Shown here piece after piece: positions 1 through 52,781 of a stretch of DNA of 64,000 nucleotides (within the stretch, counting starts at the first letter, position 1; each line of letters begins with the position of its first letter). The notes below the pieces were generated by a model. That model saw only the letters and a list, made by a program, of their open reading frames with translations, searched no databases and was not told the DNA's origin. The stretch covers positions 7,109 through 71,108 of the forward strand of contig JAUWOR010000010.1 in the NCBI GenBank assembly GCA_030612025.1, given 5' to 3'. The position numbers and the translations under genes are program-made. The stretch comes from Dehalococcoidia bacterium. Its GTDB lineage: Bacteria; Chloroflexota; Dehalococcoidia; GIF9; AB-539-J10.

Positions 1-78
1 AGCAAAGGCCACAGTGGCTTATTCACAACCGAGAATGATACACGATATGAATTCCCAAAGTCAATAGCCTGTGCTCGT

Positions 79-176
79 CCATATGATTAGTGATACATCG
101 CCTCCTTTGTTGCTATCTCGCTGTTTAATTTTGATTCCCTGTTCAATTTCAGCTATCTCAGAGGTGTTTCACCCCC
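79..176 (+). repeat. Interspersed repeat family G (~85-95 bp), copy 1
   Basis: CATATGATTAGTGA..CTGTTTAATTTTGATTCCCTGTTCAATTTCAGCTATCTCAGAGG recurs at 10792..10873 (same orientation) and, for the 3' half, inverted at 7541..7600. Confidence 0.6.
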
Positions 177-185
177 AAATTTTTG

Positions 186-235
186 TAGTTGCCTGATTTA
201 TCAGGCCCTTCTCGCCCAATAAATTGGGCAACTAC
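186..235 (+). repeat. REP family A element (GTAGTTGCCTGATTTATCAGG...CCCAATAAATTGGGCAACTAC)
   Basis: 50-bp unit with terminal inverted repeats GTAGTTGCC/GGCAACTAC; at least 11 copies in window. Confidence 0.8.
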
Positions 236-284
236 ATTTTTAAACGGCCGTTGCTATCTCAAAGCAATCTATGCTGATTCTCCC

Positions 285-612
285 TCTCTCACCCTCACCT
301 TAATCCTCTCCCGTCAAGGGAGAGGAGGAAAAACAGGGGTGAGTAATCCTGCTCCATTAAGGGAGAGGAGGGAAAAAGGGATGAATACCCCTTTCCCATC
401 AAGGGAGAGGGAAAATACACAAAATATTACTCCCTCCCCTGGCGGGAGGGAGTTAGAGGGAGGGGGAAATATATTCGTAGTGCGACCCTTGAGGGCCGTG
501 CTCGTTGATTTGCCCGAGGCTAAAGCCTCGGGCTACGTGGGCCCGGCAGGAGCTTAGGTTCATTGTTCCACCCTCACCCTGACCCCCTCCCATCAAGGGA
601 GAGGGATAAAAG
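285..612. repeat. Cluster of family C hairpin repeats (CCTCTCCCTTCAAGGGAGAGG-like) interleaved with a degenerate REP-B copy (477..536)
   Basis: Multiple perfect/near-perfect GGGAGAGG...CCTCTCCC stem-loops; same motif at 4618..4665, 5557..5610, 12195..12335. ORF 189..557 is a translation artefact of these repeats. Confidence 0.7.
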
Positions 613-795
613 CCGATATGTCTCAGTAATCATAGCAACGAGTCCCGGCTGATACAGCTTGTTCACAGTTTCGAGGTAGTATGGGCTAAAGGGCCGAGGG
701 GATTAGAGGGGCAAGCGCTTATTTCCGGGATGCCAGGAGTCTGGAGAAAGGGCAATGAAAGAAGGGTTGCCATACCTCGTAATAAGAGGTAGCTA

Positions 796-823
796 TTGAC
801 AAGATAAAACTTGCTGATATAAT
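796..823 (+). promoter_or_regulatory. Candidate sigma-70 promoter (TTGACA-16nt-TATAAT)
   Basis: Exact -35 TTGACA at 796..801 and -10 TATAAT at 818..823; a second weaker TTGACA..TAAGGT at 869..896; both upstream of the 1204 surface-protein gene. Confidence 0.35.
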
Positions 824-1016
824 AGGAATAAAGCAAAGTTAGATAATTTAATTTTTCCCTTTTACCTATTGACAAAATATTGGCTAAAGTGTAAGGTTGT
901 CTAAACCTTTTGGTTTAGTATGCGTTTATGTAATTAAAGGGGGTGATGCCTATGAAACATTCCCAAAGCGTTTTGCTGCGGGGGAGAGGAAAGAGCCCTG
1001 GTCCCGGGGCACGAAT

Positions 1017-1064
1017 GTAGTGCGAGGCTTTAGCCTCGTGCACGACCCTGAAGGGTCGCACTAC
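1017..1064 (+). repeat. REP family B element (GTAGTGCGAGGCTTTAGCCTCGTGCACGACCCTGAAGGGTCGCACTAC)
   Basis: Two short hairpins flanked by GTAGTGCG / CGCACTAC inverted termini; further copies at 4808..4868, 5329..5398, 14523..14603, 23153..23230, 42404..42451, degenerate 477..536. Confidence 0.8.
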
Positions 1065-1203
1065 AGAGGGGCAGCCTGATTTAAGGCAGGCTTTAAACAA
1101 CCTTGAGTTTACCAGAAACAAATCGGAAAACCTGAATCTGAAGAAGGTCGACTTCGGGTTGAGGCTTAGAATAAGTAAAAATTTGAAAGGAGAACTAAAT
1201 CGA

Positions 1204-4200
1204 ATGAGTAAAACAATAAGTTGGCCTGTTAGGGTAACTTACATATTTATTGCCCTGGCATTGGCCTTGAGCCTGGTGTTGGTAGCAATACCAGCTAAGA
1301 CCGACGCTGACCCAGGCCTGACCAAGTGGAGCAAGGTGACCACCCCCAGCGAGGAAGATAAAGTCATCGTGCAGAATGCTGATGTTATCAGCTTCGCTGC
1401 CGGGGCCACCGGTGATGTGATATACGCCGTTCTGGATGGCGTGTACGACTGGGACGGTACAGCCTGGGTTGAAGGCGGCGCTACTGGTAATGTAGAGGAT
1501 GTCCTCGAGGATGGCTTCGGCGACGCCGTATTCAAATCCGAGGACGCCGGTGTGACCTGGGACGACATCACCGATGAGGTACAGGAAGAGGGCATGATGG
1601 CCCCCATGATGGTGGAGGTGGCTCCCGACGATGACGACTTTGCCTTCGTGACCGGCTACGGTGACACAAATGACGATGGTGTCATCGAGCCCAAGGTTGA
1701 TGACGCTACCATGGTAATCGGCTCTGATGACGGCGGCAATGACTTCTCCGACATGGTCTTCACTGCCACTACAGAGCGGATTCTATGTATAGCAGTGGCC
1801 CCTGAGGCAGACGACGCATTCAACGTTGCTGTGGGCACCGACGCTGGTTCACTTTACCGCTATAAAGTCGGCGGGACCTTCGGTGGCGCATGGAAGGACA
1901 CCATCACCTATGATGGTTGGGATACCGGCTCTGCCGGTGCAACCACTGCGGTTGTCGCTGTAGCCTTCTCCCCCAACTTCGCTGGTGATGACACCGTCGT
2001 GGCTATTACCACCGATGGAAACAACACCTACCAGCAATCGGGTATATGGGGAACAACCAAAGCCTGGAATAACATAGCTGGCGATCCATTTCCCTCCAAC
2101 GCAGTCCGGATAATGGACGCCCCACCCTACGTGGGCATCTATAATATCGGTTACCAGGAATGGGATCTCCCGGCAGGTATAGCTATGCCAGAGGACTTCA
2201 CCGGCTATGACTCCGGACTACGACACAACTGGGTCTACCTGAACTACGATGCCGATGACAGTCCCAGTTTTGTTCCGGCAAGCTTCAAGACCGCCTTTGA
2301 TGAGGTCGGCCAGGTATTCAGAATCAAAGGCAGCACAGTAAAGTACGCTGGTATCCGCTGTGAGCCCTGGGATACCTCCACAACCTACCCCTTGATAGCC
2401 AGCATCTCAATGTATGGCGAGATAGAGGATGGTAACCTGATGGTAGGTTTGACCGGTCAAACAGACTGTTGCAAGGGCGTACAGGTTTACCGCACCAGCG
2501 AATGGCCCATAGACTACTGCTGTCCGCAGTGGTCCTCAGCCAAGAAACCACCCACGGGACAGGCAAACTGTTTGGTGAGCTATGTCGCCGGTGGAGACAA
2601 GGCATACGCAGCCACCAGCGAATGCTCCACCACTGGACTCCCGTACGACGAGAGCGCATTCTCCCTGAGCGAGGTAGAGGAAGTGGGCAAGTACTGGAAT
2701 CAGCCTAGTCTGGTTGACACCTTCATAGACTTCCTGTCTGATGTAGCGGTCAATCCTGGCTGTGGCACCATCTACCTCTTCAGCGTCAACGACCACGCCA
2801 GAGACTGTGGCTGCGACAGCGTGTGGAGCAGCACCGATGATGGCGACAGCTACCTCAGGGTATTCTGCAAGTCATTGACAAATGATTTTGGTCTTATCCG
2901 CACCGCTCCCGAGGAGACAGAGGAGGTTCTCACTGTTTACCTGGTTGACCAGGGCACCAAGGTCATTTACTGGAACGATGACAGCGGCCTGACCAACTGG
3001 TCAAATAGGAAAGCCTCTACTCTGGACAATGTCTGGGATCTCGCAGTTGAGAGCGAAGACACCATCTATGCGCTGTCCGCCAACGGCAAGGTAAGCACAT
3101 CCGCCAAGCATGGTGGACCAGGTTCCTGGAGTTCAGCCAAAGATGCCAAAGTCAACGATGGTCACTCCATAGTCTGCCGCGACGGGCATGTTCTGGTCGG
3201 CGGCACGGCTGGCAAGGTCGGTTACTCCGATGATTCTGCGTCCAGCTTCACCAAGCTGGATGACATTGGCGATGGACTTGTCCATTGCGCCTTCGACACT
3301 TACTTCGACGAGAACGACTATGTTTACGCCGCGATAAGCGGAGCCGATAGCGGAGTTTACCGCACCACCATAGCTGATGCCGACTTTGAAGATATGGATG
3401 CATGGACTACCGTCGATTACTTCGGCGTAGTGACCGAGCTCAGTAAGGATGGCAATCCTAAGACTAAAGCCGCCAATGGCGGTGTTCTCTATGCCGTTTA
3501 CTACGATGGCGCTGGCAGTGGTGTAGCTCGACAGCTCAGTCCAGCCGCGGCAACATGCTGTGGCGACTTGAGCTGGGATTACCTCACCGCCAAGCTGGAT
3601 GCAGATGCAGCCTTCACCCTTGAGCCCACTGCGCTCAAGATCTGCGGCTGTCTCACCTCCGCCACCAACAGCAACCTGTGGGCAATCGACAACGACGACT
3701 ACCAGATGTCCGACGGCAAGGATGGCACCCCGTGGGTCTACGAGGACTGCTTCGGCAAATTTGGCGTAGAACTCACTGCTGTTGGCGATGGCGATATGGT
3801 GGCTTCCGACCCCTGTGAATGCGCCAATGAGAAGTTCGTCCTCGAGTGGGAGCGCCTGTGCAACGAGTGTGAATACGATATTGACATCTCCTTGAACAGT
3901 GCTTTCACTCAGATAGTCCTTGACGAAGGGAACATTATGGTCCAGTACCCAAGCTTAGCGGGAACAGTGGCCTATGACCCGCCCAAGAACGCAGAGCCCA
4001 GCGTGGTAATCTGGGAGGGCGCCATAGACTGCAACACCACCTACTACTGGAGAGTGAGAACTCGCTATGCTGAGACTACCGAGATAATCCGGAGCTTCTG
4101 GTCTGACACCTGGAGCTTCACCGTTGAAGCCGGTCCTACTGTGGCCATTAATTTGATAGCTCCGGAGCCCAACCAGCTCAATGTGCCGATAACCAATGTT

Positions 4201-4617
4201 GGCTTCACCTGGTCGTCGGTTGCTGATGCTGACAGCTATGACTTCGTCCTATCAGCCAACGCTGACCTGTCCAGTCCCATAGAAACCAAGACAGGGTTAA
4301 CCGGTACTGCCTACACTTATGCTGGAAACCTGGATTACGACACTGCTTACTTCTGGCAGGTAACGGCAATGAAGGATGGTAATGTCTTCTCCGAGAGTGA
4401 CGTTAGCACCTTCTACACGATACCTGCGGCGGTATACACCTGCCCACAATGTGGCTTGACCTTCCCCACCGAAGCAGCTCTGAAGGCACACATTGCTGAG
4501 GCGCACCCAGCTCCACCACCGCCTGTAACTCCAGCCTGGGTATGGGTAGTTATCGGCCTCGGCGCTGTTCTGGTGATCGTGGTCATAGTGCTCATCTTCA
4601 GAACACGGCGGGTGTAA
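1204..4617 (+). CDS. Giant cell-surface protein (~1137 aa): N-terminal signal/anchor, Cys-rich ectodomain, two FN3-like modules (YYWRV..W, YFWQV), juxtamembrane C2H2 zinc finger, Pro-rich linker, C-terminal TM anchor
   Basis: SD AAAGGAGAA 9 nt before ATG 1204 (ORF track starts at 1159); hydrophobic N-terminus; C-terminus YTCPQCGLTFPTEAALKAHIAEAH then PAPPPP then 23 hydrophobic residues then RTRRV; FN3-like motifs shared with the 5698 protein. Confidence 0.7.
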   Translation: MSKTISWPVRVTYIFIALALALSLVLVAIPAKTDADPGLTKWSKVTTPSEEDKVIVQNADVISFAAGATGDVIYAVLDGVYDWDGTAWVEGGATGNVEDVLEDGFGDAVFKSEDAGVTWDDITDEVQEEGMMAPMMVEVAPDDDDFAFVTGYGDTNDDGVIEPKVDDATMVIGSDDGGNDFSDMVFTATTERILCIAVAPEADDAFNVAVGTDAGSLYRYKVGGTFGGAWKDTITYDGWDTGSAGATTAVVAVAFSPNFAGDDTVVAITTDGNNTYQQSGIWGTTKAWNNIAGDPFPSNAVRIMDAPPYVGIYNIGYQEWDLPAGIAMPEDFTGYDSGLRHNWVYLNYDADDSPSFVPASFKTAFDEVGQVFRIKGSTVKYAGIRCEPWDTSTTYPLIASISMYGEIEDGNLMVGLTGQTDCCKGVQVYRTSEWPIDYCCPQWSSAKKPPTGQANCLVSYVAGGDKAYAATSECSTTGLPYDESAFSLSEVEEVGKYWNQPSLVDTFIDFLSDVAVNPGCGTIYLFSVNDHARDCGCDSVWSSTDDGDSYLRVFCKSLTNDFGLIRTAPEETEEVLTVYLVDQGTKVIYWNDDSGLTNWSNRKASTLDNVWDLAVESEDTIYALSANGKVSTSAKHGGPGSWSSAKDAKVNDGHSIVCRDGHVLVGGTAGKVGYSDDSASSFTKLDDIGDGLVHCAFDTYFDENDYVYAAISGADSGVYRTTIADADFEDMDAWTTVDYFGVVTELSKDGNPKTKAANGGVLYAVYYDGAGSGVARQLSPAAATCCGDLSWDYLTAKLDADAAFTLEPTALKICGCLTSATNSNLWAIDNDDYQMSDGKDGTPWVYEDCFGKFGVELTAVGDGDMVASDPCECANEKFVLEWERLCNECEYDIDISLNSAFTQIVLDEGNIMVQYPSLAGTVAYDPPKNAEPSVVIWEGAIDCNTTYYWRVRTRYAETTEIIRSFWSDTWSFTVEAGPTVAINLIAPEPNQLNVPITNVGFTWSSVADADSYDFVLSANADLSSPIETKTGLTGTAYTYAGNLDYDTAYFWQVTAMKDGNVFSESDVSTFYTIPAAVYTCPQCGLTFPTEAALKAHIAEAHPAPPPPVTPAWVWVVIGLGAVLVIVVIVLIFRTRRV

Positions 4618-4992
4618 TTACACCCTCACCTCAATCCCCTCCCTTCAAGAGAGAGGAAAGGGGACTCCAAAAAGGGGCGGCTAAAAGCCGCCCCTTTTTC
4701 TTTCTCCCTATAATCATAGTGGCGGGGTTCATCCCCGCCATATGGCGTATTATGCCCCTATACCTCGGTCGGGGACAAGCCCCAACCCTACATTTGGTAA
4801 TATAGTCGTAGTGCGACCCTTCAGGGTCGTGCAATTTACCTGGGCACGAGGCTTAAGCCTCGCACTACAAAGTTCTGCCCAATGGCTGGCGCCTAATGAC
4901 TATTTTTGTCATTGCCAGTCGCGCCCTTCTTTGTCATTGTGAGGAGCCTGATTTATCAGGCACAGTCTCGCCCAATAAATTGGGCAACTACA
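4618..4992. repeat. Composite intergenic repeat cluster: family C (4618..4665), family E/F double hairpin GTAGTGGCGGGGTTCATCCCCGCC..GGGGACAAGCCCCAACCCTAC (4717..4791), REP-B (4808..4868), family D half-sites (4906..4945), partial REP-A (4945..4992)
   Basis: Each unit recurs elsewhere in the window; E/F recurs inverted at 40638..40691 and E alone at 5534..5560. Confidence 0.65.
4674..4703 (+). terminator. Rho-independent terminator
   Basis: GGGGCGGC-TAAAA-GCCGCCCC stem-loop followed by TTTTTCTTT directly after stop of the 1204..4617 gene. Confidence 0.75.
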
Positions 4993-5328
4993 TTTTTTAA
5001 TTTGACCCCGCAGCCCAGCTATGTTAGGCTTACAGTCTATATGTCAAAGAACCTTGAGGAAGGCCGCAGGTGGCTAGCTCAAGCTCAAAGGGATTTGGCT
5101 GATGGAGGATAAGGTAGCTAAACAGGTGTTTTAAATATGCAACATCAATCTTGAAAAACGTGGAGAGATTGCTAACCAAATAGAACAATATTGCCGAGAA
5201 ATAGTAAAGGAATTCAATCCGCATCAGGTAATCTTGTTTGGCTCCTTTGCCACTTTATCCCAGAAAAGGCAATTTTTACCATTTACTTTTTGGGGGTGTT
5301 TTCGTTTATAATAGTGGAGGTTAAAAAT

Positions 5329-5610
5329 GTAGTGCCAGGCTTTAGCCTCGTGCAGGATGGTAAATGGAAAAGGGCACGCCCCTGAAGGGTCGCACTACGA
5401 GATTTTATGAGCAAAGCGAAGGAACTCGACGAAGCAATCTCCATGAGTGCTCGGCCACCGAGATTGCCGCGCTTCGCTTGCAATGACAGGTGGGGAAGCT
5501 GACAAATAACTACGGAATGTAGGAGGGAATAATCGTAGTGGCGGAGTTTATCTCCCCGACCCTCACCTAGCCTCTCCCTTGAAGGGAGAGGAACAAGGTG
5601 AGGGTGATAA
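5329..5610. repeat. Intergenic repeat cluster: REP-B (5329..5398), family D half (5461..5500), family E hairpin (5534..5560), family C hairpin (5557..5610)
   Basis: Sequence identity to the other copies listed. Confidence 0.65.
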
Positions 5611-5697
5611 AAAGGATTAAGAAAGTAAGATTTAGCTTCGCTAAATGGATAATAAGGAACCACTTAGGAAAGAAAAATTAAATAGGAGGATTGTTAA

Positions 5698-7368
5698 ATG
5701 AAGTTATTGTCTCGACTAATTATCGCTCTGGTCATCTGCCTTATGGCCATTCCCGTGCTGGCTACTCCGGTAGAGGCCCATCCAGGCTTCAGCCTTAGAA
5801 ACACCACGAGCTATACTGGCCTTGACAGGGATGAGGGCTATATAGGGGATGAGGTAAGGATATATGGTTCGTGGGATGAGACTCATGGCCGGTATATCTA
5901 CATCTACTACGAACTATATGGCGAGGATGAAGAGGATTGGCATCACGAGAAGGTAGGCTATGAGGAATACGATGATACGAACGAGACCTACTCTTTTGAC
6001 TACGATCTTGAGATACCAGAAAGCTGCTCTGGAGTGCACGAAATTCTAATCTGCGATGATGATGACCCCGATGAGGATGTTGACACCCTGGAGTTCACTG
6101 TCTATCCCTCAATAGAGATAGATGAAAGTGAAGGACCAGCCGGGACCGAGGTTGAGGTGACAGGATTTGCCTGGGATGAGGATGAGAGTGAGATCGAGAT
6201 AAGGTTTTATCTGGAAGACCCTGATGATGACTACGATGATGATGACCTATATGAGGTGGTATGGCCTGTAGAGGGCGAGAGTGGGGATATCGAGGTTGAT
6301 GACTATGGTAGCTGGGAAGATGTTACCTTTGAGGTGCCCCATGCCAGTAAGGGAGACCATTGGATATATGCCGTGGGGGATGAGTCTGATGATATTGAGG
6401 ATGATAAAATCAAGGGAGTAGAATTTGAGGTTCTGCCGGGAATAAGCCTGGATAAAGAATCCGGCGGTTTTGGTGAAACTATAACCGTGACTGGCAGCGG
6501 ATTTGAGGAGGACGAGACCAGAATCAAGATATTGTTCGATGGCGATGCAGTAAAGGAGGATATTGAGGCTGATGATGATGGCATATGGGAGGCAACTTTC
6601 GAGGTGCCCGAGGCTGCCAAGGGCAAATACGATGTGACCGCTGAGGGAAGAAAGACCGATAAAGAAGACATCGAGGAGGTGGAATTTGAGGTAGTGCCGG
6701 GCTTGGTGCTGTCTCCCACTGAAGGGCATGTGGGCACAAGCCTAACCATCAGCGGCGGTGGCTTCCTAGCTAATAAATCGGTAACCATCACCTACGATGG
6801 AGTGACCAAAGGCAGCGTCACCACCAATAGCAAAGGCAGCTTTTCCGGTATTAGCTTTGAAGCCACACATACCCAGACAACGCACACTGTAGAACATCCT
6901 GTAGTAGCTACCTATGATACTACTACACTTAGCACCAAGTTCATTATGGAATCAACGGCGCCAGCTAAGCCTACGCTCAGCTCACCTGTCAATGCCAGCA
7001 GAGTGGGACTCTTCGGCAAGCAAACTCCTACATTCACCTGGTCGGCAGTGACCGATGACAGCGGGGTCAGCTATAATCTCCAAATAGGAACCAGCGCTGA
7101 TTTTGCCCAGGTGCTAATATCTAAGACAGGGTTAACTGAGGTCACCTATACCTTAGCCGGCGCAGAAGCCCTAGACTATGGCAGCTATTACTGGAGGGTA
7201 AAGGCCATAGATGGCGCTCAAAACGCTAGCGACTGGACTACCGCCTACTCCTTTAAGTCTGCGCTTTTGCCTTTATGGGCCTTTATTGCTATAGTGGCTC
7301 TAATAGTGGTGCTCATTGGCGCCCTGATTTTTGTCTTTGGCATCAGAAAAAGGGCACCATATGATTGA
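5698..7368 (+). CDS. Acidic cell-surface protein (556 aa): signal peptide, D/E-rich repeats with IPT/TIG-like beta-sandwich units (EFEVxPG...TxTGxGF), C-terminal FN3-like module and TM anchor
   Basis: SD AGGAGG before ATG; signal peptide MKLLSRLIIALVICLMAIPVLA; repeated EVEVTGFAWDEDE / EFEVLPGISLD / EFEVVPGLVLS units; C-terminus YYWRVKAIDGAQNASDW then TM, same architecture as C-terminus of the 1204 gene. Confidence 0.7.
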   Translation: MKLLSRLIIALVICLMAIPVLATPVEAHPGFSLRNTTSYTGLDRDEGYIGDEVRIYGSWDETHGRYIYIYYELYGEDEEDWHHEKVGYEEYDDTNETYSFDYDLEIPESCSGVHEILICDDDDPDEDVDTLEFTVYPSIEIDESEGPAGTEVEVTGFAWDEDESEIEIRFYLEDPDDDYDDDDLYEVVWPVEGESGDIEVDDYGSWEDVTFEVPHASKGDHWIYAVGDESDDIEDDKIKGVEFEVLPGISLDKESGGFGETITVTGSGFEEDETRIKILFDGDAVKEDIEADDDGIWEATFEVPEAAKGKYDVTAEGRKTDKEDIEEVEFEVVPGLVLSPTEGHVGTSLTISGGGFLANKSVTITYDGVTKGSVTTNSKGSFSGISFEATHTQTTHTVEHPVVATYDTTTLSTKFIMESTAPAKPTLSSPVNASRVGLFGKQTPTFTWSAVTDDSGVSYNLQIGTSADFAQVLISKTGLTEVTYTLAGAEALDYGSYYWRVKAIDGAQNASDWTTAYSFKSALLPLWAFIAIVALIVVLIGALIFVFGIRKRAPYD

Positions 7369-7385
7369 GAAGGCTGTTTAAAAAT

Positions 7386-7435
7386 GTAGTTGCCCAATTT
7401 ATTGGGCGACCGTGCCTGATGAATCAGGCAACTAC
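7386..7435 (-). repeat. REP family A element (inverted orientation)
   Basis: GTAGTTGCCCAATTTATTGGGCG...CCTGATGAATCAGGCAACTAC. Confidence 0.8.
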
Positions 7436-7479
7436 GAAATATCTTGGGGAAGCGGCACTACATGATGAGGTTTGAAAAT

Positions 7480-7529
7480 GTAGTTGCCCAATTTATTGGG
7501 CGGCCGTGCCTGATAAATCAGGCAACTAC
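7480..7529 (-). repeat. REP family A element (inverted orientation)
   Basis: Second copy 45 bp from the first, forming an inverted/direct REP pair. Confidence 0.8.
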
Positions 7530-7540
7530 AAAAATTTGGG

Positions 7541-7698
7541 GCTGAAACCCCTCTGAGATAGCTGAAATTGAACAGGCAATCAAAATTAAACAGCCGGTTG
7601 AGGGATTGCTTCGCCTTCGGCTGGCAATGGCCCCTTTTTGTCACCCTGAGCGCAGCGAAGGGTCTCAGAGATTGCCACGCTTCGCTCGCAATGACAAG
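7541..7698. repeat. Family G partial copy (7541..7600, inverted) followed by family D palindrome (7638..7698: TTGTCACCCTGAGCGCAGCGAAGG...CGCTTCGCTCGCAATGACAAG)
   Basis: Family D copies also at 14300..14345, 27922..28008, 40597..40732, 51493..51553, partial 4906..4945, 5461..5500. Confidence 0.6.
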
Positions 7699-7769
7699 GG
7701 GGGAGGGGTTGGAATGACAAGAGAACTTATATAGTGTGGGAGAAAATAGATTAAAATTAAGGAGGAAAA

Positions 7770-8945
7770 ATGAAATTAGCAGTTATTGGACTTGGGCAAT
7801 GTGGCTGTCGGATTGCTGACAATTTCGCCCGGCTCAACATCAAGGCACATGCCGAACGCAAGGTAACCATATCCCCCATCGTTATTGGGGTAAACACGGA
7901 CCAAGCGGACTTAACCGGGCTAAGGTTTATCAAGAAGGATTATATGCACCGCATACTCATCGGCTTGCGCCAGACATTGGGACATGGAGTGGGCAAGATA
8001 AATGAGCTGGGCGCTGAGTTAGCCCGGGAGGATGGCGATAAGGTGATGGATGCCATGAAAACCGAGCCAAGGTTTTATGAGACGCACGCCTTTTTGCTCA
8101 TCGCTGGCGCTGCTGGTGGCACAGGCTCAGGCGGCCTACCAGTAATTGCCAGGATGATTAAGGAGAGATACCTCAACAAGCCAGTTTATGCCCTTATTGT
8201 TCTCCCCTTTGAACATGAGCAATTCAGCGAGGCAAGGAGTGTATACAATAGCGCTACCTGCCTTAAATCTACCTATGACTTAGTGGATGCCATCTTTCTG
8301 GCTGATAACCAGAGATATGTCAGAAAGGATGCCAGCCTGGTTAATAACATGGAAAGGATAAACCGGATGATCGCCGAGCCCTTCTATGACCTGATGTGCG
8401 CTGGCGAGGTAACCAAGCGTAAGTATGTCGGCGCCAGAACGATAGATGCCGGGGATTTGATCGCCTCTCTGGAAGGCTGGACAACCATTGGCATCGGGAG
8501 AACTGAACTCCCCTCCCTTCGCTTTCCCTGGGAGATAAGAAAGAAACATTTCCGCGAGAAGGCTGTGGAAAGCTTCAGAGGGTCGCAGGCCCTGGATGCC
8601 ACCGTATCCGACCTTTCCATTACCTGCAACCCTAAGGATGCTGCCAAGGCTTTGTATATTATGGCTGGCCCAGCTAAAGAAATGAATATGGACATGATCA
8701 AGAGCGTGAGCAATTACATCAGTGAAATTGCCCCCAATGCCGTAATCAGAGGTGGCGATTTCCCCGGAGAAAAGCATTTCATTGATGTCACCTTGATATT
8801 ATCCCAGTTGTCTTTTGTGCCCAAGATAAAAGACTTTTACGAGACGTCCGTCCAATATGGACAGGAACATAAAGGACAGATAGAGGAAACACAGAAGAGA
8901 ATCCAGGCCTTAAGTGACCTAGGCAAGGAATTGCCTAACTTGTAG
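7770..8945 (+). CDS. Tubulin/FtsZ-superfamily GTPase, non-canonical (CetZ/tubulin-like) paralog, 391 aa
   Basis: SD GGAGGA before ATG; N-terminal G-box VIGLGQCGCRIADNF (GQxG as in CetZ/tubulin, not GGGGxN of FtsZ); T2-like NTDQADL; tubulin signature AGAAGGTGSGG; T7-like TIDAGDL; RGGDFPGE near C-terminus; no FtsZ C-terminal FtsA/ZipA-binding peptide. Confidence 0.75.
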   Translation: MKLAVIGLGQCGCRIADNFARLNIKAHAERKVTISPIVIGVNTDQADLTGLRFIKKDYMHRILIGLRQTLGHGVGKINELGAELAREDGDKVMDAMKTEPRFYETHAFLLIAGAAGGTGSGGLPVIARMIKERYLNKPVYALIVLPFEHEQFSEARSVYNSATCLKSTYDLVDAIFLADNQRYVRKDASLVNNMERINRMIAEPFYDLMCAGEVTKRKYVGARTIDAGDLIASLEGWTTIGIGRTELPSLRFPWEIRKKHFREKAVESFRGSQALDATVSDLSITCNPKDAAKALYIMAGPAKEMNMDMIKSVSNYISEIAPNAVIRGGDFPGEKHFIDVTLILSQLSFVPKIKDFYETSVQYGQEHKGQIEETQKRIQALSDLGKELPNL

Positions 8946-8973
8946 TAAGCAATCCTTTGACCTATTTATGCTT

Positions 8974-9024
8974 GTAGTTGCCCAATTTATTTGGGCTACC
9001 GGGCCTGATAAATCAGGCAACTAC
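8974..9024 (-). repeat. REP family A element (inverted orientation)
   Basis: GTAGTTGCCCAATTTATTTGGGCTACCGGGCCTGATAAATCAGGCAACTAC. Confidence 0.8.
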
Positions 9025-9062
9025 GAAATATTTCAGGAGGAGTGCCGGGGGTTATCCCCGCC

Positions 9063-10055
9063 TTAAAAGGCGAGCTTTAAGACAAAGGCTATAATCCAGC
9101 CGAGGATAGCACAGGCGGGAAAGGTCAAAATCCAGGTTAAGACAATATTTCTGGCTATCCCCCACCGCACTGCGGAGAGACGTCTTGTAGCACCTACCCC
9201 CATGATCGCCGTGGTGATACAGTGCGTGGTGCTTACTGGAATACCGAAGTGTGAGGCAACCTCAATAACAGTAGCCGCCGATGCCTCGGCGGCAAATCCA
9301 TGGACGGGACGCAAGGTGGTCACCTTCAATCCCAGTGTTTCGATAACTCGCCACCCACCAATAAGAGTGCCAAAGCTAATTGAAGCTGCGGAAACTACCA
9401 CAGCCCAGAAGGGGATATAGAATTCGCCGTATCCATGATAGACCATTAAAGCCATGGCGATTAAGCCAATAGGCATCTGACCATCATTCTTGCCGTGACT
9501 ATAAGCCAGGAAGGCTGCCGAAAGGATCTGCAGGTTGCTGAAGACACCTCGCATCTTTTCCGGCGCGGCTCTTCGGAAAAGCCACATTATAGCCACCATG
9601 ACCAAAAAACCACCGCTAAGACCTAAGAGAGGGGCGATGCCGACGGCAGAAAGCACTTTCCCCAGAACCCCCCAAACGATGATTTTACTACCCGAAGTAG
9701 CAATGCCAGCCCCTACCAATCCCGCCACCAACCCATGGGTCAAACTTATGGGCATGCCATAGCGTGTGGCGACAACAGCCCAGATAATAATTGCCCCACT
9801 TGCAGCAAGCACAATACTCATAGTCAAGGCTTCAGAGTCAACAATCCCTTTGCCAATGGTTAGGGCCACGGCAGTGCCTGTGGCTGCCCCAGCGAAATTA
9901 AGAAAGGCGGCCATAATTATGGCCGCCCGAGGAGAGAGGCTACGAGTACCGATCACTGTAGCGATGGCATTAGCAGCATCATTAACCCCGTTCACAATGC
10001 CGAAGCCAATGGCCGCTATAATCACCAGGATTAGCAGTGCCAAGAGGTCAGGCAT
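9063..10055 (-). CDS. Inorganic phosphate transporter, PiT family
   Basis: GIVNGVNDAANAIATVIGTR and second GANDGQ-like half, 10+ TM helices; 330 aa. Confidence 0.85.
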   Translation of the reverse strand: MPDLLALLILVIIAAIGFGIVNGVNDAANAIATVIGTRSLSPRAAIIMAAFLNFAGAATGTAVALTIGKGIVDSEALTMSIVLAASGAIIIWAVVATRYGMPISLTHGLVAGLVGAGIATSGSKIIVWGVLGKVLSAVGIAPLLGLSGGFLVMVAIMWLFRRAAPEKMRGVFSNLQILSAAFLAYSHGKNDGQMPIGLIAMALMVYHGYGEFYIPFWAVVVSAASISFGTLIGGWRVIETLGLKVTTLRPVHGFAAEASAATVIEVASHFGIPVSTTHCITTAIMGVGATRRLSAVRWGIARNIVLTWILTFPACAILGWIIAFVLKLAF

Positions 10056-15298: not shown

Positions 15299-16966
15299 TT
15301 AGTCCAGACCAACAATAATTCTCTCCACCTTGGTGATGTCCAAGCTGTTGACCACGCCATCTCCATTGGCATCAGCGCCGGGAGTTTCGGCATCGAGTCC
15401 AACAATAATCCTCTCGACCTTGGTGATGTCAAGGCTATTGACCACGCCATCTCCATTGGCATCGCCAGGCAGGATTGAGGAGACGTGGACTGAATCGCCT
15501 GTCCAGGTTGCCTCTATTTCATTTGCCCCATTATCGCCCAGAAAGCCGTTTTGCAAACCTATGTCACTGCTGTCACCCTCAGCGCCGATAACATGGAAGT
15601 GTAGTTCTGCCAGGGTGCCGGAGCCAGTGACGCCAGCTAACCCTGGGACGTTCTGAACTATGGTGCATGACCCGCCATCTTCCAGATTCCAGATGTCAAC
15701 CGGTATCGCCGTCCCATCTATCTCACCGGCAGTCACATCATCCAGTCGAAGCACCGTGTCGTCGAAGACAACATCGTAGTTAGCAGCATCGAAGTTCTCC
15801 ACCCCATCAATGTTAACCCTGGCAATAAAATCGCTACCAGCGCCTACCTCGGCTGGAGCACTAATGCTCACTGAAGGAGCAACACCGGTGGTCACAGTTA
15901 GAGTTACCGGCACCGTCACTTCTGGCTCATCGGGGTCGTTGCTTAATATTACTATATTGGCAGTGTAAGTGCTGCCGAGGCCAGTGGTATCGAAGGTAAC
16001 CGTTATGTCATCTTCCTCTCCTGGCGGCACCATGCCTGATTTGGGCTCCTCATCCAGCCAGGGGCAGTCCTCGGCTTCTCCTCCCACATACTTGCTCAGC
16101 ACCACATCATCAATAAAGGCTCCCTGACCGCTAGAGCCAGGCATAACATCACTGAAAGTGAACAATATCCACACTTCAGGCTGCCCGCAGACATTCCCCA
16201 AATAGGGAATCTCTGTGAAGTCCAAAGATTTTTCCATCCAGTGCCGGTAATGTCCGGCGATGGTCTTTCCACCGAAGTATTTTCCATCAATTGACGCTGC
16301 CCAGAGGAGGTAATCGCCAGGAATGTTATACGGCTCCACCTGTATTCCGGCCGAGTCCAACCACAAATGGAACCTCAGCTCGGCATCAGTAGCATCAGCT
16401 AGGCTGAAGGGGCCGTACACCATCGCGGAAGACATTCTGTAAGGAAACCAAGCTGGGGGGTCGACCCCATCTGTACCACTCTTGGCGCAGTAGGCACTCC
16501 ATGATCCGTTGTGGGGGTTGTAGCTGTCCTTTCCCCAGTAGGCATCCACCTGCGACTGAGAATACACGTCCCACTTAGACCCTGGAAATACCCCCTCAAA
16601 ATCCTCGGTCATTATGTTCTGCCAGCCACTGCCAAATTTGCCAGTTTCCTCTGGCTCAACCGTCTTGCCCTCTAGCGGAATTTCCAAGACCATGCTACCT
16701 GGCTTCAGGAGCAGGTTCTCAGCCTTCCCTGTGCTAGCCCCACCTGTTGTTTCCGTGTCGCTGAGAGTGTAGTTCAGCTCCGCATTGCCAACATTGCCTA
16801 TATTTAGAGTGTAGTCCTGGGTTGTGTCTGGCGGCAGCGTTTTCTCGAAGCTGGTGGGAGAAACCGTGATGTCAGGCGCGTCAGGCTGTGCGCCGGCTGT
16901 GGTGGCCCAATCCTGGGCATAATTATCCGACCATTGCTCACTCCCTTGGACATAGGACCAGGCCCC
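15299..16966 (-). CDS. C-terminal portion of frameshifted S8 subtilase gene: PKD/CARDB-like beta domains and C-terminal type-I dockerin (two DANGDGVVNSLDITKVERIIVGLD repeats)
   Basis: Shares the WSYVQGSEQWSDNYAQD segment with the upstream repeat unit of ORF 16938..19688; reading frames join at poly-C tract 16963..16966. Confidence 0.65.
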   Translation of the reverse strand, partial: GAWSYVQGSEQWSDNYAQDWATTAGAQPDAPDITVSPTSFEKTLPPDTTQDYTLNIGNVGNAELNYTLSDTETTGGASTGKAENLLLKPGSMVLEIPLEGKTVEPEETGKFGSGWQNIMTEDFEGVFPGSKWDVYSQSQVDAYWGKDSYNPHNGSWSAYCAKSGTDGVDPPAWFPYRMSSAMVYGPFSLADATDAELRFHLWLDSAGIQVEPYNIPGDYLLWAASIDGKYFGGKTIAGHYRHWMEKSLDFTEIPYLGNVCGQPEVWILFTFSDVMPGSSGQGAFIDDVVLSKYVGGEAEDCPWLDEEPKSGMVPPGEEDDITVTFDTTGLGSTYTANIVILSNDPDEPEVTVPVTLTVTTGVAPSVSISAPAEVGAGSDFIARVNIDGVENFDAANYDVVFDDTVLRLDDVTAGEIDGTAIPVDIWNLEDGGSCTIVQNVPGLAGVTGSGTLAELHFHVIGAEGDSSDIGLQNGFLGDNGANEIEATWTGDSVHVSSILPGDANGDGVVNSLDITKVERIIVGLDAETPGADANGDGVVNSLDITKVERIIVGLD

Positions 16967-19688
16967 GGTAGTAATAGGTTGTGCTTGGCACCAGTCCTGT
17001 GTCTGATTTGCCGGTTGCAGTGCCGAAATAAACTTGTGTGCCGTCGTCCCTATTTGCTGGGTAACCTCCTTGTTTTCTCTGTATTTTTGTCTTCTGAGCT
17101 CCGGCACCTTTAGTCCAGGACAAACTTATCTGGGTGGTACTGGCTGTGGTGGCGCTGAAGCTGGTTGGCGCATCGGGTTTGGTCAGGAAGCTTAACTCAG
17201 GGCCGCTGCCTGTGCCAGCACTGTTCTTGGCCTGTGCCCTGAAATAGTACTTGGTCCCTTTGTTAAGGCCAGAAATGTTTTCACTGAAGGACTGTCCGGT
17301 GGTTTTAGTTTCCACACTCCAGCCCGTGTAGGTGTAAGGCCCTCCTTGGGTGGTGCTGTAGCCAAACTGATACTGGCAGACTTCACCACCGTCATCGGTT
17401 ACCGCGCCGTGAAGAGTAGCTGTAGTCTCTTCAACAGAGGTGGCAGCATTTGTGGTTACCGTTGGCGCTCCTATTGATGTTGTGGTAGCCTGGTCTTGGG
17501 CATAGTTATCAGACCATTGTTCGCTTCCCTGGACGTATGACCAGGCTCGGTAATAATAAGTTGTCCCCGGCGTTAGTCCTGTATCAGATTTGCTGGTTCC
17601 TGTTCCGAAGTAAACCTCAGTGCCATCGTTTCTATTCGCTGGGTAGCTACTTTCTTTCCTCTGTATCTTTGTCTTCTGGGCACCAGCTCCCTTAGTCCAG
17701 GACAAATTTATCTGAGTGGTGCTGGCTGTGCTGGCGGTAAAGCTGGTTGGTTCATCAGGTTTGGTCAGGAAGCTTAGCTCAGAGCCACTACTGGTTCCAG
17801 CACTATTCTTGGCCTGTGCTCTGAAGTAATATTTAGTTCCCTTATTAAGGCTTGAAATAGCTTCGCTGAAGGACTGGCCTGTGGTTTTAGTTTCCACACT
17901 CCAGTCAGTGTAGGTGTACGGTCCTCCCTGGGTCGTGCCATAGCCAAAGCGATACTGGCAGGCTTCACCACCATCATTGCTTACCATGCCATTAAGGGTG
18001 GCAGAGTTCTCCTCTACCAAGCTTGCGGCATTGGTAGTCACCGTTAGCGCTGGTGAGGGTGTCGGCAAGTAAAGCCTGCCACTTCCATACAGGTTATCTT
18101 TCCCAGAAGCACCGAGAGCAACGGCATTCGTCTCAAGATAATTCTGTATTTGCTCCGGAGTGTAAGAGGGAAAGCGTTGCTTGACCAGCGCCGCCGCCCC
18201 TGCCCCATAAGGAGCCGAAGCTGACGTGCCATAGAAATTCTCTGCTCCATAGGTGGAGGTGCTCACGCCATCAGGAGCAACCAAATCGGGTTTTGTCCTA
18301 GCGTCCACCGTTGGCCCCTGAGAACTGAATGATTCCAGCGTTGTAGGGTCGTCCCAGAACACAGCTCCCATGGTCATAGCGCTGGGCGAGTCAGCGGGTA
18401 CACACAGGCTGCCAGCCGCAACCTGATATTGTAGATTGTAGCGTGTGCGTGTCAGGTGGAAGTTGACTACTTCCGGTTCACCCCAGGCAGCTATTAGTAT
18501 GTGATAGATTCCTGTGTATGTAGGGGTATACGACAAAAATTCGTACGGGTCGTCATTACCATCTTGTATCCTGCAAGAGCACGCAACTAGAAAAGAGTTG
18601 TTATCAAGCAACAATAAATCATAGTCATTGCCAGAATTGCCCCAGGGATCATCCCATTTGAGGCTAACTACAATGTCATTTCCGCTGTTGGCAGTGATCG
18701 CATTAGACTCATCAAAGGGTGATTGGTTAAATTCGTGGATGTCATCCATATCACTATCTACAAAGTCTCCCTGCCAGTGACGCTGGGCATAGTTCCCCGC
18801 CGCCTGAGACCACAGGATGCAGGCAGCTCTGGCATCATCCACCATCTGACAGAACAGTCCAGTGCCATCCCCTGGCCCTCCTGGGAGCCAATCCATGGAG
18901 CAGGAGATAACATCAACCCCCTGAGCTATAAGCCAGTCAACAGCATTACCCATCTCGACACTACTGTCAAAGTTGGCCAGATAAAACTGGGCGTCGGGAA
19001 CAAGGTCGTACACGATCTCGGCACAGGCAGTGCCGTGTACAGATGTTCCCTCATTTCCATAGCTTGGAGCCCACCAACTTGCAACCGTGGCAGGCAATTC
19101 CGTACCCAAGAGAGAATCATATCCAGAGAAACCACCATCCAGAATGCCGACCTTCACTCCGGTCCCCGTAAAGCCAGCACTATGCCAGTCATCGGCGTTA
19201 ATCAGGCTTACACCCTCACTGATAACTGATGGTATGGGTTTGAAAGGCAAGCGCACCAATTTAACACTAGCATCATCAGCTAATGCCTCAACCTGAGCGA
19301 CGGGTATCCCAACCTGTACCAGATCCTTATAGCTAGTTTCTACATCGGCACCGAGAGCCTCGGCGATACGCATAACTTCATCCTCCTGCCCACCCACAGC
19401 CTCAATAACCACCCTGGTCCAGTCACCTTCCACATCTATGCCAGATTTTTGAGCAAAAGCGCTCAAATCACCTTTTTCGTAAGCCGCAACCAGTTGGTCC
19501 AGCCGCGACCCCAGCTTAGGATGTCCCTTAGTAATCTCTGGGAGGGCATTAAGATTCGATAAGATGTCATCCTCATCATCAGCCGAAGCACTTCCAGTAG
19601 CCGCACCTCCTATAACCGAAAAGGCTAAAGCGAGGCATAAAATGAGGTTTAGAATTCTCGCCGACCACCCGTTCTTCATGTTTAACAT
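16938..19688 (-). CDS. Subtilisin-like S8 serine peptidase with signal peptide and two tandem ~195-aa FN3-like repeat units (N-terminal portion of a disrupted ~1460-aa gene)
   Basis: Signal peptide; S8 catalytic region (HGTACAEIV..., GTSASAPY); tandem units each ending YYFRAQAKNSAGT..SFLTKPD..YYYR; ORF terminates YYYRGLVLCPRE* where repeat unit 1 reads YYYRAWSYVQG. Confidence 0.75.
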   Translation of the reverse strand: MLNMKNGWSARILNLILCLALAFSVIGGAATGSASADDEDDILSNLNALPEITKGHPKLGSRLDQLVAAYEKGDLSAFAQKSGIDVEGDWTRVVIEAVGGQEDEVMRIAEALGADVETSYKDLVQVGIPVAQVEALADDASVKLVRLPFKPIPSVISEGVSLINADDWHSAGFTGTGVKVGILDGGFSGYDSLLGTELPATVASWWAPSYGNEGTSVHGTACAEIVYDLVPDAQFYLANFDSSVEMGNAVDWLIAQGVDVISCSMDWLPGGPGDGTGLFCQMVDDARAACILWSQAAGNYAQRHWQGDFVDSDMDDIHEFNQSPFDESNAITANSGNDIVVSLKWDDPWGNSGNDYDLLLLDNNSFLVACSCRIQDGNDDPYEFLSYTPTYTGIYHILIAAWGEPEVVNFHLTRTRYNLQYQVAAGSLCVPADSPSAMTMGAVFWDDPTTLESFSSQGPTVDARTKPDLVAPDGVSTSTYGAENFYGTSASAPYGAGAAALVKQRFPSYTPEQIQNYLETNAVALGASGKDNLYGSGRLYLPTPSPALTVTTNAASLVEENSATLNGMVSNDGGEACQYRFGYGTTQGGPYTYTDWSVETKTTGQSFSEAISSLNKGTKYYFRAQAKNSAGTSSGSELSFLTKPDEPTSFTASTASTTQINLSWTKGAGAQKTKIQRKESSYPANRNDGTEVYFGTGTSKSDTGLTPGTTYYYRAWSYVQGSEQWSDNYAQDQATTTSIGAPTVTTNAATSVEETTATLHGAVTDDGGEVCQYQFGYSTTQGGPYTYTGWSVETKTTGQSFSENISGLNKGTKYYFRAQAKNSAGTGSGPELSFLTKPDAPTSFSATTASTTQISLSWTKGAGAQKTKIQRKQGGYPANRDDGTQVYFGTATGKSDTGLVPSTTYYYRGLVLCPRE

Positions 19689-20545: not shown

Positions 20546-20768
20546 TATGCACCTCCACGTGTTGCATTCATCGTCCTTCTCTCTCCAGCCAGAGCCTGAG
20601 TTTTGGCACCAAGAATATCCTCATACTTTTTTCATATTCTAAACCACATTGGTGTTGAGAACAACCTCGAGTTGGGTTAGCTACTTAAATGATTTGACAC
20701 GTAGGACGAAAGCCCTAGCTTTCCAGGCTGAGTCTGGACCCCTCTCAGCCATAAGCGTGCTAAGCAGA

Positions 20769-22379: not shown

Positions 22380-22381
22380 TT

Positions 22382-23071
22382 CTAGAATAAATTCTTGGCC
22401 TTCAGGCTCGAATAGCTTTTATCACAGACAATAATATGGTCCAGGACATCAATGCCCATGATTTCACCCGCCTTGGCCAGCCGCTTAGTTAACTCGATAT
22501 CCTCTTTTGATGGCCCTGGGTCGCCTGAAGGATGATTATGCACAAAGATTACCGAGGCAGCGCTGGAGGAGATAGCTTCCTTGAATACCTCGCGGGGGTG
22601 GACAATGCTAGTATCCAGGCTGCCCATAGAGATCGCCCGGCAATTTATGACATTGTTTCTAGTGCCTAAACAAAGAACCAAAAAGTGCTCCTTCTTCTTG
22701 CCTTTCAATTGGCTCTTTACTACGTTTACCACATCTTCTGGGGACTTGATTACTGGCTTCCCACTCACATCGACAGGGCTCTCCAGCCTCTTGCTCAATT
22801 CAACCGCAGCTTTAATCTGGGCTGCCTTGGCTGGACCAATACCTTTTATCTCGGTCAGTTCTTCTATGGAGGCATCGGCAACCCCCTTTAGATTACCGAA
22901 TCGGCTCAATAGCCTTTGAGCAGTTACCATGACGGATTCGCCTTTAACCCCTCGACCTAAGATTAAAGCTAAAATCTCCTGAGCCGAGAGAGCTTCACTA
23001 CCCAGCTTAAGCAGCCTCTCCCGGGGACGCTCACTAAGAGGCAAGTCATGAACGGTAAAAGAGTTTTTCAT
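22382..23071 (-). CDS. radC: RadC-like JAB/MPN domain protein
   Basis: HhH N-terminus and JAMM motif HNHPSGDPGPSKEDIELT. Confidence 0.8.
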   Translation of the reverse strand: MKNSFTVHDLPLSERPRERLLKLGSEALSAQEILALILGRGVKGESVMVTAQRLLSRFGNLKGVADASIEELTEIKGIGPAKAAQIKAAVELSKRLESPVDVSGKPVIKSPEDVVNVVKSQLKGKKKEHFLVLCLGTRNNVINCRAISMGSLDTSIVHPREVFKEAISSSAASVIFVHNHPSGDPGPSKEDIELTKRLAKAGEIMGIDVLDHIIVCDKSYSSLKAKNLF

Positions 23072-52123: not shown

Positions 52124-52157
52124 GCAATATCAGCATTATTTTAAGGAGGGTGCAAAC

Positions 52158-52730: not shown

Positions 52731-52781
52731 CATTGCCTATAAGCATGGTTAACCAAATATGGGGCTCATAAGGAGAAGGGT

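Follow-up and report, generated by a model that had tools for sequence, protein, structure and literature searches.

What kind of protein places a C2H2 zinc finger directly in front of a bacterial membrane anchor, and does it have anything to do with the tubulin homologue encoded next to it? The question is raised by two neighbouring genes on the forward strand of the window, a 64,000-nucleotide stretch of contig JAUWOR010000010.1 from a Dehalococcoidia bacterium. The genes, here called P1 and P2, were confirmed as open reading frames (ORFs) for proteins of 1137 and 556 residues (Table 1); the P1 frame reaches further 5', to a TTG at 1159. An earlier note on this DNA had announced a pair of giant, acidic, envelope or S-layer-like (surface-layer-like) proteins, of which "giant" is overstated for P1 at 1137 residues. 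The class Dehalococcoidia, common in sediments and aquifers, contains the main organohalide respirers. Little is understood of the envelope of these cells, which lacks peptidoglycan and whose proteins have so far been recorded only as 'putative S-layer' hits. The reading favoured here, with moderate confidence, regards P1 and P2 as envelope proteins of the S-layer type with a C-terminal anchor, the membrane-distal propeller of P1 forming a variable exposed face and the finger an optional extracellular spacer in its stalk. Databases already list both as hypothetical proteins, and the novelty lies in the interpretation at the level of architecture.

Hydropathy analysis reveals exactly two hydrophobic segments per protein, one at each end (residues 7-35 and 1106-1137 in P1, 1-29 and 517-554 in P2). 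The N-terminus of P1 has the layout of a Sec-type signal peptide, with a basic n-region, a 20-residue hydrophobic core and small residues at -3 and -1 (V-x-A before DP in the family), and this region is 82-94% identical in relatives whose ectodomains are only 20-40% identical. The P2 family likewise keeps a signal-like start with small residues at -3 and -1 (MKLLSRL...PVQA). At the other end, the single predicted transmembrane (TM) helix is followed by basic residues in both proteins, the P1 helix terminating in RTRRV. The N-terminal signals and the single C-terminal anchors proposed before are therefore retained as predictions: each protein would be exported via its Sec-type signal and remain fixed in the cytoplasmic membrane through a single C-terminal helix, with the short basic end inside. 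Given a signal at the N-terminus and a single helix at the C-terminus, everything in between is predicted to lie outside the cell. Cys14 of P2 (5737-5739), within the hydrophobic core of the signal, is nearly invariant in the family and does not form a canonical lipobox (...LVIC-L...).

The acidity of the two proteins is pronounced (pI 4.05 for each; Asp plus Glu 14.8% in P1 and 21% in P2), and only one other protein of the window, an exported dockerin/cohesin protein, ties with them for the highest acidity. A subtilase comes next, so that acidity is a general trait of the exported proteins of this organism.

For P1, an AlphaFold2 model built from a 62-sequence alignment (predicted local distance difference test, pLDDT, 85.7; predicted template-modelling score, pTM, 0.80) comprises an N-terminal helix (7-28) at low pLDDT, approximately 54 beta-strands between residues 42 and 866 in a tandem propeller fold, two beta-sandwich domains (~878-975 and 984-1072) and a terminal helix (1111-1135). 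In a Foldseek search of the PDB, the first match was 5jwz, a putative GH74-type xyloglucanase with two seven-bladed propellers, followed by the Vps10 domains of SorCS2 and sortilin and by tandem WD40 propellers, with 6fg9 among the top matches (E 1e-17 to 1e-10). The TM-scores (0.23-0.35 at 12% identity) are low because the query is multidomain. The Pfam Sortilin-Vps10 model reaches 16.5 bits on P1, under its cut-off of 33, and precomputed matches to this family and to BNR (PF15902/PF02012) occur in distant relatives. Sortilin/Vps10 and GH74 tandem propellers are thus of the same fold class as the modelled P1 ectodomain, at ~10-12% identity; P1 differs from them in its FN3-like domains, finger and bacterial TM anchor.

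The predicted fold of P2 (pLDDT 87.2) is a string of Ig-like domains followed by one FN3-like domain and a helix (526-549), in agreement with matches to Pfam TIG (39.6 bits, cut-off 20.9) and to the NCBIfam GxPGS Ig-like domain (53.4 bits, cut-off 45). Foldseek retrieved multi-Ig chains for P2, the second-best match being 7ptp_A ('in-situ structure of pentameric S-layer protein'); at a TM-score of only about 0.15-0.18 and 11% identity, this likeness is one of architecture only. The protein in question, the S-layer glycoprotein csg of Haloferax volcanii, which is anchored by the PGF-CTERM/ArtA system, is likewise an acidic Ig chain with a C-terminal membrane-anchoring segment, and its host also has CetZ proteins (PMC11621097). 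Unlike csg, P2 has no PGF motif and matches no CTERM model.

The C-terminal module that the two proteins had been said to share turns out to be the FN3-like YYWRV...W domain and no more: a BLASTP comparison of P1 with P2 gives a single significant match (P1 986-1075, P2 421-524; 27% identity, E 1e-8), whereas the TM tails are only generically alike. A second, weaker copy occupies residues ~891-975 of P1, and the module of one relative (P0414) passes the Pfam cut-offs of Ig_Rha78A_N and fn3. From the membrane outward, P1 would thus consist of a short stalk, two FN3-like domains and two beta-propellers, the outermost of which would be the exposed, fast-evolving face; P2 would be a very acidic rod of Ig-like domains, better conserved than P1 and held by an anchor of similar kind. 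Either of the two may form a lattice.

Family distribution and divergence are consistent with such an arrangement. A word-indexed search yielded 78 P1 homologues, an exact copy among them, and a scan of one genome per prokaryotic species gave 132 tblastn-confirmed matches. Of these 132, 78 loci were kept, and apart from two short contigs that were probably mis-binned they all belong to metagenome-assembled genomes of Dehalococcoidia/Chloroflexota. A profile made from the remotest P1 members retrieved at least 472 proteins of 1000-1200 residues, many with BNR and Sortilin-Vps10 Pfam matches; P2 has more than 441 homologues. Both families were found only in metagenome genomes of Dehalococcoidia/Chloroflexota, and cluster look-ups returned almost no names. 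When three related contigs (L001, L008 and L009) are compared with the window, PHO4 (97%; L001, L008), PhoU (95-97%; L001, L008) and the CetZ-type tubulin (94-95%) are nearly identical, P2 is 73-82% identical and P1 only 47-49%. Within P1, identity is about 80% over the last ~130 residues and lowest (20-40%) over residues 51-400, which make up the membrane-distal propeller. Such a pattern would be expected if a surface-exposed antigen or receptor sat on a scaffold conserved for export and anchoring.

A possible counterpart of P1 in a cultivated member of the class is DET1407 of Dehalococcoides mccartyi, a BNR/Asp-box protein that is regarded as the putative S-layer protein and chief protein of the envelope and ranks near the top of the cell's proteins in abundance (PMC5102406, PMC6646388 and supplements). 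The same annotation is found in distant P1-family members, and a published tryptic peptide of DET1407, YFGNQWNQTALCK, holds the family hallmark GNxWNQxxL. The core motif, WNQxxL, was found in 188 of the 197 proteins of the P1 family, as against none of the 2084 remaining ORFs (450,000 residues) of these loci; at this position, one member of the family has GNTWNQTGL. These observations support, without proving, that DET1407 and P1 belong to the same family. On the other side, the loci retained after the species-wide scan, which looked for the P1-type tail, include no D. mccartyi protein, the species is absent from the best 120 of the 472 relatives found by the profile, the targeted S-layer peptides are specific to a few Dehalococcoides proteomes (PMC6646388), and no zinc finger has been reported for DET1407. 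A riboswitch has been reported upstream of the Dehalococcoides S-layer gene (PMC5102406); Rfam matched no RNA family anywhere in the window, so that no riboswitch of this kind lies upstream of P1. The S-layer of Sulfolobales, formed by the large outer protein SlaA and the smaller membrane-anchored SlaB, is likewise encoded by two genes side by side. The comparison is one of layout, and P1 and P2 differ in that each has a TM anchor of its own. Taken with the folds and the family distribution, the Dehalococcoides literature supports the envelope or S-layer-like reading.

The finger of P1 (Y-x-C-P-Q-C-x3-F-x5-L-x2-H-x4-H, residues 1078-1101) fits the C2H2 consensus in ligand spacing and in its aromatic/Leu core. 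With the Pfam families tested (PF00096, PF13894 and PF13912), zf-C2H2 scores 20.7 bits (E 5.5e-4, cut-off 25.2), and zf-C2H2_4 and zf-C2H2_6 also match; relatives with the same finger exceed the zf-C2H2 cut-off (P0336, 32.6 bits; P0381, 27.9 bits), and proteins with finger arrays reach 56-112 bits. The model places strands at 1078-1079 and 1086-1087 and a helix at 1090-1100, the beta-beta-alpha order of this fold, and one P1 homologue is named 'C2H2-type zinc finger protein [Dehalococcoidia bacterium]' by NCBI. The C2H2 identity given in the earlier note is upheld by these data, and the finger probably binds zinc. Its position directly ahead of a PAPPPP linker and the membrane anchor is equally as described.

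The basic residues come after the C-terminal helix, which puts the finger on the ectodomain side of the membrane, and it would lie outside the cell if P1 is exported, because no TM segment separates it from the ectodomain. A cytoplasmic finger was considered and rejected: it is contradicted by the conserved signal-like N-terminus, the Cys-rich propeller ectodomain and the positive-inside C-terminal end. The predicted extracytoplasmic location thus stands, and literature searches for extracytoplasmic or secreted bacterial C2H2 fingers found nothing relevant. The claim that such a finger is highly unusual for bacteria holds in this sense, but not within this lineage, many of whose surface proteins carry one.

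The stalk can have or lack the finger, which is a swappable module and not a fixed feature. In the alignment of 59 homologues, it is intact in 14, degenerate in four and absent from 41. The linker, measured from the last FN3 Phe to the anchor Trp, spans 37-44 residues with an intact finger, 37-40 residues with a degenerate one (second Cys replaced by Asp, in one case also without the final His) and 16-41 residues, 34% of them Pro, without a finger. Its presence is patchy along the identity range, with intact copies in clades 36-57% identical to P1. In an 88%-identical P1 allele without finger, the DNA of the flanks, the TM tail and the 3' hairpin is almost identical, and the finger segment alone has been replaced. 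Two tandem fingers precede the same tail in P0336 and P0381, and the finger-plus-anchor cassette also ends beta-helix and other surface proteins with unrelated ectodomains. Optional presence, exchange for polyproline, tandem duplication, tolerated loss of ligand residues and a helix surface that is acidic or neutral (TEAALKAHIAEAH) rather than basic all argue for a structural spacer. The finger would be a small, presumably zinc-stabilised beta-beta-alpha unit that acts as a rigid spacer interchangeable with a proline-rich linker, and probably not as a nucleic-acid reader. Classical C2H2 fingers (PF00096; TFIIIA/Zif268), Ros/MucR included, are intracellular nucleic-acid binders. The P1 finger shares their consensus, (F/Y)-x-C-x2-C-x3-F-x5-L-x2-H-x4-H, and their predicted fold, but it is single, predicted to lie outside the membrane, flanked by Pro linkers, allele-optional and devoid of a basic recognition helix.

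Related fingers occur in other contexts. Three to five tandem, proline-linked C2H2 fingers were found in metagenomic proteins (P0331, P0344, P0351, P0353, P0376, P0379, P0383, P0391, P0398, P0419 and P0445), where Ig-like domains come after them and either a TM/signal segment at the N-terminus or a conserved GPPLPK..WPWY motif comes before. A phmmer search of 1.84 billion representatives with residues 1074-1137 of P1 was dominated by poly-C2H2 proteins, matching query positions 4-30 up to 19 times, and gave no clean count of tail-bearing families, but it brought to light the finger-plus-anchor cassette on other architectures. Fingers with Pro linkers were also present on four IMG/VR viral contigs (L087-L090), in one case on a protein with weak similarity to head-morphogenesis proteins.

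Several points weigh against the S-layer reading with its spacer finger. P1's own zf-C2H2 score stays under the Pfam cut-off, and the model has a pLDDT of only 66-73 over the finger. The link to DET1407 is drawn from one motif, a domain annotation and taxonomy. Finally, the P1 anchor is conserved far beyond the need of a passive membrane anchor. Its columns are at least 90% conserved in a family whose overall identity to P1 ranges from 30 to 91%, the remotest members of the alignment standing at 30-31%. Compared with 33 distinct homologous tails, the anchor codons show a mean of 9.9 synonymous versus 3.7 non-synonymous differences; the anchor is thus conserved by selection on the peptide and not by recent exchange of DNA. 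This suggests an additional function beyond tethering.

Such a function could be that of a dedicated sorting signal: an enzyme would read TP-x-W-V-W, the helix and RTRR in the last 29 residues, remove the helix and attach the protein to a lipid or another envelope component. PEP-CTERM/exosortase, PGF-CTERM/archaeosortase, LPXTG/sortase and GlyGly-CTERM/rhombosortase signals have the same three-part layout of motif, TM helix and basic cluster at the extreme C-terminus, on several unrelated exported proteins per genome. Variants of the P1 tail (TPxYIWVIIGxGAxLVIAxIxLIxRTRR..) indeed also end right-handed beta-helix/NosD-like and multi-FN3 proteins, several tail-bearing genes occur per genome (five loci in MFD04408.bin.2.47, for example), and the near invariance under purifying selection fits a recognised peptide. 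However, none of the NCBIfam CTERM/LPXTG sorting-domain models matches P1 (best GG_III-CTERM, E 0.97, 9.4 bits versus 22), a P1 relative (best LPxTATN, E 0.16, 12.3 bits versus 32) or P2 (nothing). The recurrent neighbouring genes include none that resembles a sortase, exosortase, archaeosortase or rhomboid protease, and the whole helix is conserved here, whereas known systems conserve it less strictly than the signature motif. We consider a sorting signal, which the earlier note had named as a possibility for the shared module, doubtful, if worth entertaining. The P2 family has a tail consensus of its own (LLPLWAFI...RRR..YD), which differs from that of P1 and is likewise conserved. Some lineages have a second P1 paralogue 3' of P2 (L003:16248-20030, L012:16930-20580), with a divergent TM helix (TASWWWVIIGIGAVVWLVILVLIFRTRRV) and an identical LIFRTRRV end.

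Alternatively, the anchors may be conserved for what they contact inside the cell. The tubulin-like gene noted before directly follows P2, and its product matches Pfam Tubulin (PF00091, 105.6 bits) and CetZ_C (PF21011, 67.4 bits), both over threshold; its closest solved relatives are 4b46 (E 4e-47) and 4b45 (E 2e-25), with FtsZ at 7e-9 or weaker. The two structures are CetZ1 and CetZ2 of H. volcanii (PMC9856176), and CetZ has been described as archaea-specific (PMC11621097, PMC9856176); literature searches for CetZ in Chloroflexota found nothing relevant. An archaeal origin of the contig is ruled out by the RpoD, DnaG, NAD-dependent ligase (LigA) and release-factor genes of the window, all bacterial. 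P1, P2 and the CetZ-type tubulin could then constitute one functional envelope-cytoskeleton module, compatible with the S-layer reading, in which CetZ filaments position or pattern P1 and P2 (or the reverse) via the TM helices and tails and thereby shape the peptidoglycan-less cells. ORFs were extracted and classified in 84 sequences: the order P1, one to three P2 paralogues, CetZ recurs across the class, including a subgroup with P1 only ~27% identical, and each of the 25 CetZ-like genes in related loci, spread over several Dehalococcoidia subgroups, is immediately preceded on its own strand by a member of the P2 family, at a gap of 42-617 bp. In archaea, the neighbourhoods of cetZ have been linked to functions of the cell surface in published surveys (PMC9856176), and both anchors are strongly conserved. 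Yet the loci were collected via P1, which biases the sample, and PHO4, PhoU and a phage-like module (described below) are as syntenic around P1/P2 as CetZ, so that part of the P2-CetZ linkage reflects general conservation of synteny. Moreover, three loci (L026, L027 and L029) keep P1 and P2 with the invariant tail and have no CetZ at that place, and a cytoplasmic tail of five residues offers a small binding surface. A functional coupling is accordingly rated as rather doubtful.

A bolder combination of these ideas, unlikely in our estimate, would give Dehalococcoidia an archaeal-style envelope-cytoskeleton unit: a bacterial CetZ would pattern P1 and P2 via their invariant TM helices and tails, the stalks would contain a hitherto undescribed class of extracellular C2H2 spacer that the virion proteins of their phages share, and the tail would act as a novel signal for sorting or assembly.

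P1 might instead be chiefly a surface-anchored enzyme or carbohydrate-binding receptor (GH74-like glycanase or sialidase-like) for polymer foraging and have no structural role. Foldseek ranks a putative GH74 xyloglucanase first, some relatives are named 'exo-alpha-sialidase' in databases, distant relatives have partial matches to a glycosylhydrolase model, and cohesin, dockerin and subtilase proteins are encoded in the neighbourhood. Against this, the TM-scores are low, the glycosylhydrolase matches are far under cut-off (47-74 versus 175 bits), and the hypervariable propeller would be half of a GH74-type cleft. The fixed position of the gene in almost every genome of the class and the abundance of the putative Dehalococcoides counterpart also speak against it, and an enzymatic P1 seems decidedly unlikely. 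Very unlikely, finally, is a finger that binds extracellular DNA or an envelope protein or buffers zinc instead of serving as a passive spacer: the full consensus in the 14 homologues and the tandem arrays in other putatively exported proteins, which resemble multivalent binding, would favour it, but close alleles manage without a finger, four homologues keep the scaffold and lose ligand residues, the helix is not basic, and a lone C2H2 finger has little affinity for nucleic acids.

If P1 and P2 are S-layer-type proteins with a spacer finger, the locus provides a class-wide envelope gene set of P1, P2 and CetZ. The map of the exposed, fast-evolving part of P1 could be of use in strain typing, as a source of proteomic biomarkers and in studies of phage receptors, and the nearly invariant anchor is a possible genomic marker for surface proteins of Dehalococcoidia. 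The finger is apparently the first classical C2H2 finger predicted outside a bacterial cell, as the searchable literature gave no such report. Should the CetZ link be functional, a cytoskeletal family described as archaea-specific would extend into bacteria.

Table 1. Features of the P1-P2-CetZ region, in positions of the window.
Feature	Position	Strand	Basis and remarks
Promoter-like site TTGACA-16 nt-(TG)TATAAT	796..823	+	consensus match, ~375 nt upstream of P1 start
P1 gene, putative hypervariable surface protein (1137 aa)	1204..4617	+	ATG start, GGAG ribosome-binding site
P1 signal-peptide-like N-terminus	1204..1308	+	aa 1-35; predicted cleavage after TDA, before DP
P1 ectodomain, tandem beta-propellers, Cys-rich	1321..3813	+	aa ~40-870; DSSP of model
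P1 FN3-like domain 1 (YYWRV...W)	3835..4128	+	aa ~878-975; modelled beta-sandwich, weak similarity to P2 module
P1 FN3-like domain 2, module common to P2	4153..4428	+	aa ~984-1075; BLASTP, model strands 984-1072
C2H2 zinc finger YTCPQCGLTFPTEAALKAHIAEAH, predicted extracytoplasmic	4435..4506	+	aa 1078-1101; Pfam and model
Pro-rich linker PAPPPPV	4507..4527	+	between finger and anchor; read from sequence
P1 C-terminal anchor TPAWVWVVIGLGAVLVIVVIVLIFRTRRV, nearly invariant (interface motif, TM helix, basic end)	4528..4614	+	family alignment
Terminator-like hairpin and T-run, GGGGCGGC-TAAAA-GCCGCCCC-TTTTTCTTTCT	4673..4700	+	read directly, just after P1 stop
P2 gene, putative very acidic Ig/TIG-domain surface protein (556 aa)	5698..7368	+	AGGAGG ribosome-binding site
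P2 signal-peptide-like N-terminus	5698..5778	+	aa 1-27, ...PVEA before H28; hydropathy
P2 chain of Ig-like (IPT/TIG) domains	5785..6957	+	aa ~30-420; all-beta model
P2 FN3-like module, homologous to P1 module	6958..7260	+	aa 421-521; Pfam Ig_Rha78A_N E 1.1e-4
P2 C-terminal anchor LLPLWAFIAIVALIVVLIGALIFVFGIRKRAPYD	7267..7365	+	hydropathy, model helix 526-549
CetZ-type tubulin homologue	7770..8945	+	next gene 3' of P2; Pfam Tubulin and CetZ_C

The promoter-like site is the sole 12/12 consensus match within 1-9200, a region in which the overall count of promoter-like sites is no higher than in shuffles. The hairpin after P1 is GC-rich and kept in the allele on L086; a pattern scan did not list it. 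As consensus matches only, the two signals would fit a strongly expressed, monocistronic P1 gene.

Short palindromic repeats of three families (CACCCTCACC...GGGAGAGG; GTAGTGCGACCC...GGGTCGCAC; GTAGTTGCCCAATTTATTGGGCG) crowd the intergenic DNA around P1, P2 and cetZ, at 120-611, 1014-1064, 4621-5000, 5326-5607, 7363-7594 and 8962-8994. Inverted 87-nt copies, 97% complementary, at 120-206 and 7508-7594 bracket P1 and P2. The repeats may be elements of the repetitive extragenic palindromic (REP) or miniature inverted-repeat transposable element (MITE) type that could favour cassette exchange. The spacer between P1 and P2 is a variable insertion site: in the window it contains nothing but repeats, and in a closely related genome (L001:5268-7340) a PKD/Big_9 surface protein is encoded there together with a toxin-antitoxin pair of the HEPN/nucleotidyltransferase type.

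In at least 15 Dehalococcoidia genomes (L003, L004, L011, L012, L020, L023, L025, L026, L029, L030, L034, L036, L047, L076 and L081), the P1-P2-CetZ block lies between two gene sets on the opposite strand (e.g. L004:1-8801 and 20696-22987). One is a phage-like head/tail module with genes for helix-turn-helix, SPP1-type portal, scaffold-like, HK97-type capsid, adaptor-like and tail-like proteins; the other consists of a terminase-large-subunit-like gene and a gene of 114 codons. That the order is unchanged in lineages where P1 identity is down to 27% points to vertical inheritance of an element that is possibly domesticated and resembles a gene transfer agent. The element is absent beside P1 in the lineage of the window. 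That P1 and P2 are prophage cargo was rejected: phage genes do not accompany the block in this lineage, and a signal plus an anchor are features of host-envelope type.

Other exported proteins are abundantly encoded at 15299-19688 of the window and on upstream DNA (L084:1-8393), among them cohesin/dockerin proteins, a BACON plus cohesin protein and two subtilases, one with a dockerin and one with FN3 domains; a cohesin-dockerin surface system is in itself unusual for a Dehalococcoidia genome. At 52098-53957, a ClpP-like gene matching phage head-maturation proteases (E 3e-21) is followed by a 391-residue ORF without Pfam or PHROG match, and the two may represent the protease-capsid pair of a phage remnant or an encapsulin-like system.

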